Of a DNA stretch of 20,103 nucleotides, positions 7,549 to 11,175 are shown one piece after another (within the stretch, counting starts at the first letter, position 1; each line of letters opens with the position of its first letter). This DNA is from Methylococcales bacterium (lineage in GTDB: Bacteria; Pseudomonadota; Gammaproteobacteria; Methylococcales; Methylomonadaceae). The DNA lies in the NCBI GenBank assembly GCA_028714175.1, contig JAQTMV010000086.1, positions 1 through 20,103 on the forward strand, in the 5' to 3' direction. The position numbers and the translations under genes were made by a program. The notes below the pieces were generated by a model. It was not told the origin of the DNA, did not search any database, and saw nothing but the letters and a program-made list of their open reading frames with translations.

Positions 7549-8079
7549 ATGGCGTTAATCACAAGACTTTCAAAACTGTTTCAGGCTGATATGCATGCAG
7601 TCCTGGACAAAATAGAAGACCCTGAACTGCTGCTCAAGCAGGCCATCCGGGAAATGGAAGAATCCATTGCAACGGACGAACAGCAGACTCTGTTATGGGA
7701 AAACGAAAAACAACAGCTAATCAACAAACACGATCAACTGGCAGAAACTCTAACCGATCTGGAAGATAAATTATCGCTCTGTTTTAAATCCAATAAAGAC
7801 GATCTGGCACGGTCATTGATAAAACGAAAACTGGAAACGCATCAAACCAGGCTTTTGCTGGCTGAGAAAACAGTTGCCTTACAGGAAAAAATAACTCGTT
7901 TAACCAAACAGCTTACAGAACATCAGGCTCAATTAGCGAGCATGAAGCAAAAAGCCGAAGCATTCCTGGATGAGAATCGGGTTAACTCAACCAATTGGGA
8001 GAATTCGCCAGTTGGGGTTCGAGATGAGGATGTGGAAGTGGCCTTTCTGTATGAAAAACACAAATGGAGCGAATCATGA
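7549..8079 (+). CDS. PspA/IM30 (phage shock protein A / Vipp1) family coiled-coil protein.
   Basis: N-terminus MALITRLSKLFQADMHAVLDKIEDPELLLKQAIREMEES aligns with the PspA N-terminus ([38 protein letters not shown]). The rest is largely coiled-coil. An agaggg SD lies 7 nt upstream of ATG 7549. The ORF track start at 7513 is probably too early. Confidence 0.85.
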   Translation: MALITRLSKLFQADMHAVLDKIEDPELLLKQAIREMEESIATDEQQTLLWENEKQQLINKHDQLAETLTDLEDKLSLCFKSNKDDLARSLIKRKLETHQTRLLLAEKTVALQEKITRLTKQLTEHQAQLASMKQKAEAFLDENRVNSTNWENSPVGVRDEDVEVAFLYEKHKWSES

Positions 8080-8660
8080 AAAAGGTAACGTTTTGGGAAG
8101 GTGTTGTCATTGCATTGATCGGCAGCGTAATTGGCAGTATCGGATTTTTTGCCTTATGGTTTCTGTTTTCTGAAGATTGCGCCTTCCGGTTGTTAATCAG
8201 CGGATTGGCGTTTGCCTATAGCCTTTACCTGCTTAGCCGAAGCCGGGAACGAAGCGGCCGGATCACGGTTATGTCGATCTGGTTCATGCTATTGGTAATG
8301 CTTTGGCTGTTTTACCCGCCCCTAACTCTGTTTGTCATAGTGCATGTGCTTGCAATCTGGCTGGTTCGTTCCCTCTATTGTTATGCCAGTTTATTTTCAT
8401 CGCTGGTCGACCTTGGTTTGAATACGCTCAGCATTTCGTCCGCATTCTGGGCTTTGCATCACACCGGCAGTCTGTTTTTAACGTTCTGGTGTTTCTTTCT
8501 GGTGCAAGCACTCTTTGTTTACATCCCCACCGGCATTAAGTATCGGAATCCTGACAAGGCAGCTATACCCAACAGCGCATCAGATTTTAAACGTGCTCAC
8601 CGTACAGCGGAAGCCGCTGTACGCAAACTTTCATCTTATAACCAGGAGCAAACACTATGA
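8076..8660 (+). CDS. Integral membrane protein with 4-5 TM helices and no recognised family. Translationally coupled to the pspA-like gene.
   Basis: ATG 8076 overlaps the pspA-like stop (ATGA). TM segments include VVIALIGSVIGSIGFFALWFLF, LLISGLAFAYSLYLL, IWFMLLVMLWLFYPPLTLFVIVHVLAIWLV and LFLTFWCFFLVQALFVYI. Confidence 0.7.
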   Translation: MKKVTFWEGVVIALIGSVIGSIGFFALWFLFSEDCAFRLLISGLAFAYSLYLLSRSRERSGRITVMSIWFMLLVMLWLFYPPLTLFVIVHVLAIWLVRSLYCYASLFSSLVDLGLNTLSISSAFWALHHTGSLFLTFWCFFLVQALFVYIPTGIKYRNPDKAAIPNSASDFKRAHRTAEAAVRKLSSYNQEQTL

Positions 8661-9886
8661 AAACCAAAACAATAGCCATCGGAATTTTTGTTGCAACCAC
8701 CGCAACGGTCGCTTCTTTTCCGGCAATCCAGCAGGCTATCGCCACCACAACAAAAATGATCAAAACACCCCCTGCTATCGTTAATCCGGTAACCATGCCC
8801 TCAATTGTTGCCAATCAACGCCCACAGATTGAAGTGGTGTTCGTGCTCGATACCACCGGCAGCATGGGCGGACTGATTGCTGCAGCCAAGGAGAAAATCT
8901 GGTCGATCGCCAGCACGATGGCATCCGCCCAAACTGCACCGGACATTAAAATGGGGCTGGTTGCTTACCGGGATAGAGGTGATACCTATGTGACCCAGAC
9001 GATAGCCTTATCCAGCGACCTGGATTCCATGTATGCCAAACTGATGGATTTTCAAGCGGATGGCGGTGGGGATGGTCCCGAAAGCGTTAACCAGGGACTT
9101 CATGACGCCGTCCACAATATGACCTGGAGCCAAAACCCCACTACCTACAGAGTCATCTTTCTGGTTGGTGATGCACCGCCGCATATGGATTATCAGGATG
9201 ACGTCAAATATCCGGTTACTTTAGCCTTAGCCAAACAAAAAGGCATTATCGTCAATGCGATTCAATGCGGACAAGACAGCAGCGCCACCGCCGATTGGCA
9301 CCAGGTGGCCAGTTTGGGTCAAGGCACTTACTTTCAGGTTGAACAATCCGGTAATGCAGTAGCCATTGCCACACCTTACGATAAAAAGCTGGCGGAATTA
9401 TCCAGTAAAATGGACAAAACCCGGCTTTTTTACGGCAACGACGAAGAAAAGGCAAGACAAGCCAACAAAATGGCAGCGACCGATAAGCTGCATAAAGAAG
9501 CCAGCACCGAAGCGCAAGCCCGCCGCGCAACCTTTAATGCGTCGGCAAGCGGTAAAGCCAATTTACTCGGCGAAAACGAACTGGTGGATGCGGTGGCCAG
9601 CGGTCGGGTAAAGTTATCCAGTCTGACGAAAAAATCGTTGCCTGAAAGCCTGCAAGTCATGTCGCCTGCTGCTCAAGAGGCATTTGTCGGCAAAACCAAA
9701 AAAGAGAGGGGCGAACTGGAATCGGAAATCAAACAGCTTGCCGAGCAACGAAACGATTACTTGCAGCAGAAAGTTGTTGGTGAAGGTGGAAAAAAGGACT
9801 CGCTCGATGCCAAATTATATGGCGCAATCCGCAATCAGGCTAAAGAAAAAGGCCTGGTTTATGAAGCTGATAGTGCTAAATATTGA
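8657..9886 (+). CDS. Secreted von Willebrand factor type A (vWA) domain protein with a C-terminal K/E/A-rich coiled-coil or low-complexity tail.
   Basis: Signal peptide MKTKTIAIGIFVATTATVASFPAIQQAIA. MIDAS motif VVFVLDTTGSMGG (DxTGS) with downstream GDAPPH. An aggag SD lies 9 nt upstream, and the ATGA overlaps the upstream stop. Confidence 0.85.
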   Translation: MKTKTIAIGIFVATTATVASFPAIQQAIATTTKMIKTPPAIVNPVTMPSIVANQRPQIEVVFVLDTTGSMGGLIAAAKEKIWSIASTMASAQTAPDIKMGLVAYRDRGDTYVTQTIALSSDLDSMYAKLMDFQADGGGDGPESVNQGLHDAVHNMTWSQNPTTYRVIFLVGDAPPHMDYQDDVKYPVTLALAKQKGIIVNAIQCGQDSSATADWHQVASLGQGTYFQVEQSGNAVAIATPYDKKLAELSSKMDKTRLFYGNDEEKARQANKMAATDKLHKEASTEAQARRATFNASASGKANLLGENELVDAVASGRVKLSSLTKKSLPESLQVMSPAAQEAFVGKTKKERGELESEIKQLAEQRNDYLQQKVVGEGGKKDSLDAKLYGAIRNQAKEKGLVYEADSAKY

Positions 9887-9930
9887 CAGTAGGGCTAATT
9901 AAAAACTTCAACATTTATGTTATCCAAAAA

Positions 9931-9968
9931 GCCTGCTTAACCAATGCTTATTAAGCAGGTTTTTTTTA
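9931..9968. terminator. Bidirectional rho-independent terminator between the convergent vWA and band-7 genes.
   Basis: A 9-bp stem cctgcttaa/ttaagcagg is flanked by tttttttt on the plus side and by ctttttgg on the minus-strand reading. Confidence 0.7.
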
Positions 9969-10008
9969 TTTTATTCAGTTGCTGGAGGGGATAAAAGCAT
10001 CAGCATGT

Positions 10009-11175
10009 TTATGGTAGCAACTTACTCCGCTCGGTCAAACGCACCATATCATTCATCACGCCATCCAAGCCACCGTAAACATTCAAGGTATTAATACGCG
10101 ACGTAATTTTTTCCAATATTTCTAACTCCTTCAAGCGCAACAACACAGGGTTGCCTTCCATGACTTTGGCGGTGTTATGCAAAGAACGGGTGGCTTGGGT
10201 TTCTTCCTGGCGTTTAATCAAATTGGCTTCGGCCAGTTTTTGCGCCTCAACCACTTGCGTCAAAATCGCTTTCATTTCGCCGGGCAATACAATATCACGC
10301 GCCCCGACCGTTTTCACTTCAATGCCATAAACGGCGGCTTTTTCCGCGACGATGGCTAGCACCTGGTGATTCAAGGAATTTTTATCCGCCAGCAACTCAT
10401 CCAGCGTTTGCGTGCTGACAATCGTCCGTAACGCCAATTGCAATTCCCGGTACAAATAATCCTTGGCATCCGCCAATTGCGCTTTAACCACTTCAGGGTG
10501 CCTGATCTGCCAGGTTGCCGACAAATTCACCCGCAAACTCACGCGGTCTTTTGTCAAAATTTCCTGTTTATTCACTTCCATATTTTGCAAACGGCCATCG
10601 AATAAAGCCACGCTGATAGTGCGATTAAACCGCCACCAAATGTGCGTTCCCGCCGTTAACGTCGCCACTATTTCGCCATCTACCGTCAAAAAACCAAGAT
10701 GATTTTCCGGGACAGTAGCCGCTACAATGGCTGTCAGGGCGGCCCGGCGCAGCAGGTCGTCTTTGGTATTTGCCAACAATGCCGCCAATGTTTTGGATAC
10801 GGTAAATTTTTCGGTTATGTCCAACTTGTCAACATGTATATTCTGCTGAGTCTTCCAGTAGGCACCGCGTTGTCCAGGGGCTTTTATATCTTTCAGGACA
10901 TTTTTTTGATAAACCAGCCCGACTTCCTGTTCGTCTGTTTCCCATTGTGTCATCACCTCGGCAAACGCTTCCGGGTGCAATTGCGCTATATGCAGCAGGT
11001 CTTTGCTCATTTCTTCCTGCAAGGTATTGGTCAGGGTGACAATCTGTACCTGGTATTGATCGAACCAATCCCAAAATTTGTGCACACCCGCCGGCAAGAC
11101 TTTGATAAATTGCTGCTCTTTAAACAGCAGGCCCTTTTGCGTTTCCGCAATAATTATTTTTTTCTTTAACCACAT
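10009..11175 (-). CDS. SPFH/band-7 (stomatin/flotillin-like) domain protein with a roughly 170-aa N-terminal extension.
   Basis: The C-terminal half reads LRTIVSTQTLDELLADKNSLNHQVLAIVAEKAAVYGIEVKTVGARDIVLPGEMKAILTQVVEAQKLAEANLIKRQEETQA, typical of SPFH. Start is at MWLKKKIIIAE (ATG 11175) with an aaggag SD 6 nt upstream. The ORF track start at 11271 is probably too early. Confidence 0.8.
   Translation of the reverse strand: MWLKKKIIIAETQKGLLFKEQQFIKVLPAGVHKFWDWFDQYQVQIVTLTNTLQEEMSKDLLHIAQLHPEAFAEVMTQWETDEQEVGLVYQKNVLKDIKAPGQRGAYWKTQQNIHVDKLDITEKFTVSKTLAALLANTKDDLLRRAALTAIVAATVPENHLGFLTVDGEIVATLTAGTHIWWRFNRTISVALFDGRLQNMEVNKQEILTKDRVSLRVNLSATWQIRHPEVVKAQLADAKDYLYRELQLALRTIVSTQTLDELLADKNSLNHQVLAIVAEKAAVYGIEVKTVGARDIVLPGEMKAILTQVVEAQKLAEANLIKRQEETQATRSLHNTAKVMEGNPVLLRLKELEILEKITSRINTLNVYGGLDGVMNDMVRLTERSKLLP

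Follow-up and report, generated by a model that had tools for sequence, protein, structure and literature searches.

Our analysis of a 20,103-bp contig from a Methylococcales metagenome-assembled genome, called the window in what follows, leads us to propose that five adjacent genes in it probably form a self-contained PspA envelope-stress cassette of Gammaproteobacteria, controlled by its own two-component system. From the list of open reading frames (ORFs) with their translations and from Pfam and NCBIfam scans, two of these genes lie on the reverse strand and encode a sensor histidine kinase of 708 residues (4538–6664; Pfam HisKA and HATPase_c) and an OmpR/PhoB-type response regulator (6661–7368; Pfam Response_reg and Trans_reg_C). 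Divergent from them, on the forward strand, are the genes for a short PspA/IM30 (ESCRT-III-type) protein of 176 residues (7549–8079; PF04012), a membrane protein of 194 residues with six predicted helices and no family match (8076–8660), and an exported von Willebrand factor A (vWA) protein of 409 residues (8657–9886; VWA_4 and VWA). The original prediction had suggested a distinct envelope-stress module with the two-component system as its regulator, comparable to LiaFSR-LiaIH. We arrive at the same view as the best reading because the genes are co-conserved, because their shared upstream region carries a conserved operator, and because a 2024 survey of PSP partners makes no mention of vWA proteins in the text and the one supplementary file that we used. 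The novelty would lie in the new set of partners, and in the new type of sensor, that surround PspA in this stress response.

The sequence confirms the operon structure. The three forward genes had been described as translationally coupled through ATGA overlaps at 8076 and 8657, and both overlaps are found in the ORF calls: the ATG of the membrane-protein gene at 8076 overlaps the TGA of pspA (8077–8079), and the ATG of the vWA gene at 8657 overlaps the TGA of the membrane-protein gene (8658–8660). The terminator said to be shared with a convergent band-7 gene is also present, as the hairpin CCTGCTTAACCAATGCTTATTAAGCAGG at 9932–9959, an inverted repeat between the convergent vWA and band-7 genes with an A-run on its 5′ side and a T-run on its 3′ side. 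On the other strand, the response regulator gene overlaps the start of the kinase gene by 4 nucleotides. The identity and the divergent orientation of the OmpR-type two-component system hold as first described, while the bounds of the intergenic region, given as 7408–7548, need correction: in an alignment of 70 homologues the response regulator most likely starts at ATG 7368 (MSRKLRILIIEDE, the same in all homologues), not at TTG 7407, and the intergenic region is therefore 7369–7548.

A profile search with the membrane protein gave 171 confirmed matches among 185,579 species-representative genomes. The locus counts that we report rest on the best 80 of these 171 matches, taken with their flanks, whose ORFs were searched with nine window proteins. 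The order of kinase and response regulator in one direction and PspA, membrane protein, and vWA protein in the other is kept in essentially every one of the 80 loci where the contig extends sufficiently. The gene-neighborhood comparison thus finds the three coupled genes conserved together and the divergent OmpR-type two-component system conserved along with them; a random adjacency of the three genes is clearly contradicted. When all flanking ORFs of the 80 loci were clustered, no additional flanking gene was common to more than 5 loci; the unit therefore consists of exactly five genes. The 4-nucleotide ATGA overlap between pspA and the membrane-protein gene is kept in 62 of 73 loci, the gap from the membrane-protein gene to the vWA gene is mostly 10–24 nucleotides across loci, and the kinase is conserved at 600–1450 bits in nearly all loci with an intact kinase. 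The module proteins diverge in parallel across the loci, which suggests that the module has been inherited as a unit; it stands in genomic neighborhoods that differ by lineage, and its distribution is patchy. Judged by record titles, it is carried by Methylococcales, Methylophaga/Piscirickettsiaceae, Sedimenticola, Thiogranum, and Ectothiorhodospiraceae, and further by Porticoccaceae, Litoribacillus/Oceanospirillales, Lysobacterales, Wenzhouxiangellaceae, and Arenicellales. Among the carriers that can be grown in culture are Methyloglobulus morosus KoM1, Sedimenticola selenatireducens, Litoribacillus peritrichatus, and Methylomicrobium sp. A few metagenome-assembled genomes with the module are labeled Halobacteria, Flavobacteriales, or Acidimicrobiia, and these labels may be binning errors.

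The region between the response regulator gene and pspA could be delimited in 71 cases (70 loci and the window), with both start codons set by alignment. TGTAAA occurs in all 71 of these regions, and the direct repeat TGTAAA-N5-TGTAAA is exact in 53 and has one mismatch in the remaining 18, compared with 0.14% of shuffled sequences. Exact matches number 56 in 972 kb of locus DNA, all of them upstream of pspA; the sole match in the window is TGTAAA-TTGTT-TGTAAA at 7435–7451 on the forward strand, which we take as the predicted response-regulator site. The repeat lies mostly 107–125 nucleotides upstream of the pspA ATG in intergenic regions that range from 142 to 487 nucleotides, and since this distance is nearly constant despite the variable intergenic length, the repeat belongs to the pspA promoter. 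Downstream of it, the 71 aligned upstream regions (consensus tTTTacCaAAncctgtCta...cCtanAct) share a core promoter block, located at 7467–7513 on the forward strand of the window, with TTTTACCAAA (7467–7476), TGTCTA (7480–7485), and a −10-like TAGACT (7507–7512), the last within CATAGACTG at 7505–7513. A good −35 element is missing, as is typical of promoters that depend on an activator. OmpR/PhoB-family regulators classically bind tandem direct repeats whose period is 11 bp, as it is in the repeat found here. The presence of the repeat in all 71 regions and the conserved promoter block support direct control of the operon by the response regulator, and regulation by the two-component system appears well supported.

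The first gene of the operon had been called a PspA/IM30 protein, and the profile and alignment results bear this out. Its product matches PspA_IM30 (PF04012) with an E value of 2.4e-13 and 50.6 bits against the Pfam cutoff of 33.9 bits, covering positions 4–138 of the 220 in the profile. Its residues 1–140 align with residues 1–140 of E. coli PspA (phmmer, 4whe, E 3.6e-8), and Vipp1/sll0617 entries align to it over residues 1–137 in the same kind of search. The protein belongs to a uniform short subfamily of about 174–181 residues (1410 matches). It has helices α0–α3, of which the N-terminal amphipathic helix and the α1–α3 hairpin can be aligned with solved PspA/Vipp1 structures. Both the amphipathic helix, MALITRxSRLFxADxHAVLDxIEEP, and an acidic motif at the C-terminus, VRDEDVEVAFL, are highly conserved. 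The α4–α5 part of canonical PspA is not recognizable in the 176-residue protein, either from profile coverage or from the alignment.

For the second gene, the original prediction of a novel protein with 4–5 transmembrane (TM) segments is right as to an integral membrane protein without a family match, and the helix count probably has to be raised. A plain hydropathy scan shows four strong segments only. An AlphaFold model built on 16 homologues (predicted local distance difference test, pLDDT, 72) places helices at 6–30, 33–54, 59–79, 83–101, 106–130, and 133–152, followed by a C-terminal helix at 169–191, and from these six helices the earlier figure is probably an undercount. No Pfam or NCBIfam model matches the protein even at E≤10, which removes the proposed DUF350/YjfL-like relationship, and the structural search found no convincing structural relative. 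The family comprises about 934 representatives at 50% identity, and those among them that are listed are mostly about 185–195 residues long. R38, D112, Q144, and the motif WCFFLxQA are invariant, all inside predicted helices, and a basic C-terminal helix, AEAAVRKLS, is conserved. The N-terminus and the loop after helix 2 are basic, so a topology with both termini inside is likely and the C-terminal helix would be cytoplasmic. The gene had no tblastn match in the plasmid and phage collections.

The third gene had been read as a secreted vWA protein with a metal-ion-dependent adhesion site (MIDAS). Its product matches Pfam VWA_4 (E 9e-15) and VWA (E 3e-8), and the domain, at about residues 57–235, has the vWA (Rossmann-like) fold. 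A signal-peptide-like segment occupies residues 1–30 and ends in an AxA site; basic residues (MK.K), a hydrophobic stretch of about 17–19 residues, and an AxA-type site are found at the N-terminus of most homologues. These features fit a Sec signal peptide, and hence the protein would be located in the periplasm. The MIDAS part of the reading needs qualification. The D65-T67-S69 motif (D-x-T/S-x-S) is invariant in both sub-variants of the protein, D172 is invariant in the main variant and Asn in the minor one, and the usual MIDAS Thr position is apparently occupied by a conserved GGD motif (D139). The minor sub-variant is found in about ten loci, with the same architecture and still within the full five-gene module. 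Behind the vWA domain is a helical tail of about 170 residues (about 240–400), strongly conserved and modeled at a pLDDT of about 90 or above, for which no Pfam or structural match was found; the protein as a whole had no sequence match in the PDB. None of the 80 loci contains a MoxR AAA+ ATPase or other Bat genes, and with no conserved gene beyond the five, the vWA protein does indeed stand apart from the usual MoxR-type ATPase or TerY-type partners.

The sensor kinase starts with a basic N-terminus, and its two TM segments (16–34 and 443–461 by hydropathy) flank a periplasmic domain of about 400 residues; HisKA and HATPase_c follow, and a HAMP domain was not detected. The periplasmic region has no significant Pfam match and no sequence match in the PDB. 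NCBIfam and PADLOC likewise yielded nothing significant for this region, for the membrane protein, or for the vWA tail. Between the conserved N- and C-terminal parts of the sensor lies a hypervariable insert of charged, low-complexity sequence (about residues 170–315), in which three short motifs, QAAFDxL, LGRVEDLxL, and RxExxLP, are conserved across distant loci. Such an insert is unusual for a histidine-kinase sensor and suggests docking sites for a partner.

Taking these observations together, we propose the following scheme. From what is known of their families, the membrane histidine kinase would use its large sensor domain to detect a disturbance of the periplasm or envelope and would then phosphorylate the OmpR-type response regulator. 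The phosphorylated regulator would bind the tandem TGTAAA repeats, a CpxR-box-like GTAAA-N6-GTAAA, upstream of the activator-dependent promoter and so turn on the translationally coupled operon for PspA, the six-helix protein, and the vWA protein. The short PspA/ESCRT-III-type protein would then coat the inner membrane on its cytoplasmic side and stabilize it. The precedents of LiaI-LiaH and PspBC-PspA suggest that the six-helix protein may be a dedicated anchor or recruiter of PspA, LiaI- or PspB/C-like, probably acting through the basic helix at its cytoplasmic C-terminus. Least certain is what the exported vWA protein does. It could act in the periplasm through its metal-ion-dependent adhesion site, either by binding a damaged envelope component or by docking on the sensor loop of the kinase. 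In the second case it would be induced to serve as a feedback or co-sensor protein, much as CpxP serves CpxA, and the acidic motifs conserved in the disordered insert of the kinase sensor make this role attractive. While we observed which genes make up the unit, how they are arranged and co-inherited, and which operator and promoter sequences they keep, we infer the inducing signal, the contact between PspA and the membrane protein, the vWA ligand, and the periplasmic location of the vWA protein.

The proposed cassette recalls several known systems without belonging to any of them. Lia is presented in the text of the 2024 survey (PMC11237479) as a PspA system with a two-component regulator and a membrane anchor. 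Like B. subtilis LiaIH-LiaGFSR, the module has a PspA-family protein co-transcribed with a small integral membrane protein, the pair adjoins a dedicated two-component system, and the presumed logic is shared: envelope damage is sensed, PspA is induced, and PspA is recruited to the membrane. The module differs in that its response regulator is of the OmpR/PhoB type (Trans_reg_C) rather than the NarL/LuxR type, its kinase has a periplasmic domain of about 400 residues where Lia has an intramembrane sensor, its membrane protein, which neither Pfam nor NCBIfam recognizes, is encoded after pspA, and an exported vWA protein is added. The scans detected neither a LiaF/Toastrack nor a LiaI-LiaF-TM domain, and the LiaH equivalog NF045984 scores 38.9 bits against a cutoff of 380 bits. 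The module resembles Cpx, in which cpxP is divergent from cpxRA, in that its OmpR-type two-component system points away from the operon that it would induce, and in that one product of this operon is exported, presumably to the periplasm, where it could act back on the kinase. GTAAA direct repeats that recall the CpxR box lie in the intergenic region between the two. For CpxR the consensus is GTAAA-N5-GTAAA, and spacings of N4–8 have been used in searches (PMC12802237); the predicted site of the module has the identical half-site with a spacing of N6 instead of N5 (71 of 71 loci). The response regulator is 34% identical to E. coli CpxR, the kinase aligns with CpxA in the core only (28% over 216 residues), lacking a detectable HAMP domain and having an unrelated sensor domain, the CpxA NCBIfam model scores 95.6 bits against a cutoff of 486 bits, and where Cpx has a CpxP-type protein as its target, the module has PspA, the six-helix protein, and the vWA protein. 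We therefore rejected, on identity and architecture, the idea that the two-component system is simply CpxRA; the layout is Cpx-like, and the system is not an orthologue.

With the enterobacterial Psp system (PspF-PspABCDE), the module shares the PspA/IM30 effector, which in its N-terminal helices can be aligned with E. coli PspA from residue 1 onward. It differs in that PspF, PspB, and PspC were not detected in it, a two-component system takes the place of the σ54 activator PspF in its control, the PspA protein has 176 residues with no recognizable α4–α5 region, and TIGR02977 scores 52.3 bits against a cutoff of 242.95 bits. From BatA/BatB, the MoxR-associated aerotolerance proteins, the module differs by the absence of a MoxR ATPase or Bat genes from its 80 loci and by the family-specific helical tail of about 170 residues on its vWA protein. 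Judged by its sequences, the cassette thus falls outside Psp, Lia, Cpx, and the vWA-MoxR/Bat systems in tests of membership, and it would function like Lia or Cpx. The original prediction had not recognized a PspA coupled to a secreted vWA protein as a described combination; the words vWA, Willebrand, and MIDAS are likewise absent from the text and the one supplementary file of the 2024 PSP partner survey that we used (PMC11237479). A literature search on PspA with vWA or von Willebrand, and on PF25106, returned nothing relevant.

Several observations weigh against our proposal as it stands. The PspA-like protein lacks the α4–α5 region, so its oligomerization may differ from that of canonical PspA. 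The invariant intramembrane Arg, Asp, and Gln of the six-helix protein suggest more than a passive anchor. Its periplasmic loops are only 2–3 residues long in the model, which leaves no evident physical link across the membrane. A vWA protein in the periplasm and a PspA in the cytoplasm cannot touch directly and have no obvious route of communication. The specificity of the response regulator for the TGTAAA repeat is something we infer from conservation and family behavior alone. The invariant intramembrane charges and the lack of an obvious route between vWA and PspA keep alive another explanation, namely a module for divalent-cation or ion homeostasis, in which the six-helix protein would serve as a small channel or transporter working through its intramembrane Arg, Asp, and Gln, the vWA MIDAS would bind a periplasmic metal, the kinase would respond to the cation, and PspA would do no more than buffer the membrane against the ion leak. 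The charged and polar residues together with WCFFLxQA in the predicted membrane helices, the D-x-T/S-x-S metal-site motif kept in both vWA sub-variants, and the highly charged, acidic and basic insert of the kinase sensor would all suit such a module. Yet no family or fold of transporters or channels matches the six-helix protein, the 80 loci have no metal-resistance genes conserved alongside the module, and vWA MIDAS sites normally use the metal for binding a protein ligand, not for metal sequestration; we consider this explanation unlikely. The module could also be an accessory island for membrane defense triggered by a phage or toxin, in which PspA, the six-helix protein, and the vWA protein would block or abort infection. 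A compact cassette in varied genomic neighborhoods, patchily distributed (171 matches in 185,579 species genomes), is what one might expect of such an island, and vWA domains reportedly occur in some conflict systems. However, PADLOC gave no relevant match and the six-helix gene is absent from the plasmid and phage collections, which makes defense very unlikely. Moreover, the module contains no nuclease, NTPase, or toxin-type effector, the classical two-component system with its conserved operator fits a transcriptional stress response, and the parallel divergence of the proteins suggests inheritance as a unit.

The original prediction had also joined the PspA operon with the adjacent band-7/SPFH gene (10009–11175, reverse strand; Pfam Band_7 E 2e-28, start ATG 11175), said to be driven by σ54, as a membrane-stress pair. 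The two are convergent neighbors in the window and in L001, its closest relative, and associations of PspA with band-7 proteins exist in other bacteria according to the text of the 2024 survey (PMC11237479). In contrast to such operons, the band-7 gene adjoins the module in only 1 of the 80 loci, L001. When band-7 was used as a query against metagenomes, 29 loci were obtained, and none of them (0/29) encodes PspA, the six-helix protein, or the vWA protein. Instead, the conserved context of band-7 is rtcR divergent from rtcB, followed by tRNA-like genes and band-7, and all 13 metagenome loci in which rtcB and rtcR were detected have the order rtcR, divergent rtcB, gap, band-7. An SPFH gene, PaFlo8, is embedded in the rtc locus of P. 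aeruginosa as well (PMC13086221). With this context in metagenomes, the band-7 gene is therefore part of an RtcR-controlled RNA-repair locus, and its convergence with the vWA gene is incidental. The σ54 promoter ascribed to it fares no better. The σ54-like match GGCACGGACACTGC at 11305–11292, upstream of band-7, belongs to a pattern found 2 times in the window against 1.04 expected, and TGGCA[CT]-N5-TTGC is directly upstream of band-7 in none of the 13 related rtc loci, so we rejected this site as a genuine promoter on its chance frequency and lack of conservation. The same element is found just upstream of rtcB in 8 of these 13 loci, and the window has a σ54-type element there too, GGCACACGATATGC at 13013–13000. 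That the PspA operon works together with band-7 is, on these counts, extremely unlikely.

In the window, the rtc locus is complete at 10009–14802, with rtcB (11736–12959, reverse strand) divergent from rtcR (13186–14802, forward strand; RtcR N-terminal domain and σ54 AAA+ domain), both identified from the Pfam and NCBIfam scans; no rtcA is seen in the window. RtcR, which belongs with rtcB, is the only σ54 activator in the window. Two tandem tRNA-like genes lie at 11438–11584 on the reverse strand (Rfam tRNA, 62 and 54 bits), to which ARAGORN assigns abnormal anticodon loops ("tRNA-???", a two-base anticodon). One or two tRNA-like genes stand in the same position in 13 band-7 loci (12 with rtcB and rtcR) and in L001, at 11360–11509 in L001 and around 5400–5750 in L082–L107. 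Their anticodons in the related loci differ or are aberrant (Pro-agg, Met-cat, Stop-tta, "??"). These genes look like conserved elements of the Rtc RNA-repair operon rather than ordinary tRNAs and could be substrates, decoys, or sensors; the Y-RNA-like YrlA offers a comparison.

The remaining features of the window concern its other genes. A DUF2157-like multi-TM protein (3362–4795, forward strand), recognized from the ORF list and the Pfam and NCBIfam scans, runs about 258 nucleotides into the 3′ end of the convergent kinase gene, and its tail resembles antisense read-through. The homologue in L001 (3218–4426) stops before the kinase gene (4463), and the copy in the window has probably lost its stop codon or contains a sequencing error. 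We tried this gene as a further member of the module and rejected it, as it is present only in L001. A TPR-repeat gene runs off the left end of the contig (1–1070, reverse strand). It consists of 8.5 tandem copies of a 126-bp unit with 91% identity, the units encode 42-residue TPR repeats (AEAEPLMRRALAIDETSFGAEHPNVA...), and the best NCBIfam match is the FxSxx-COOH system TPR protein. The left end, generally 1–2500, has 59–65% G+C against 43–50% across most of the remaining window, which suggests a foreign origin or a chimeric assembly joint. Three more ORFs without an NCBIfam match lie on the reverse strand at 14889–15350 (153 residues), 16783–17739 (318 residues), and 18178–18963 (a multi-TM protein of 261 residues). 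Five distant loci (L044, L050, L058, L066, and L077) have a homologue of the last downstream of their module.

Beyond the envelope-stress cassette that we favor, we can also imagine, as a rather unlikely extension, a trans-envelope machine for sensing and repairing damage. The vWA protein would read a periplasmic cue, possibly an exposed acidic ligand or a change in divalent cations and perhaps by docking on the LGRVEDL-type motif of the kinase, and the six-helix protein would couple to the recruitment of PspA, its invariant Arg, Asp, and Gln linking the cue or the energetic state of the membrane to the cytoplasmic ESCRT-III-type PspA. If this were true, the machine would be a bacterial counterpart of the cation-triggered membrane repair by ESCRT-III in eukaryotes, and two new protein families, the six-helix protein and the helical tail of the vWA protein, would be defined.

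PspA/IM30/ESCRT-III proteins are a universal tool of membrane maintenance, and to our knowledge their targeting and regulation outside a few models (Psp, Lia, and Vipp1) are largely unknown. The envelope-stress cassette would offer a compact set of parts for this problem, inherited strictly together: a sensor whose periplasmic domain is new, a regulator for which the operator can be clearly predicted, PspA in a minimal form, a new family of membrane partners with about 930 representatives at 50% identity, and an exported vWA protein. It raises testable questions, namely how a periplasmic signal is converted into the action of PspA on the cytoplasmic face, what a vWA/MIDAS protein does in a bacterial stress response without a MoxR ATPase, and what recruits a PspA that lacks α4–α5. 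It also gives a context, and with it a working hypothesis, to three groups of proteins annotated only as "hypothetical protein," "Mg-chelatase subunit ChlD," or "PspA/IM30 family protein," which occur in methanotrophs, Methylophaga, sulfur oxidizers, and other environmentally important Gammaproteobacteria.

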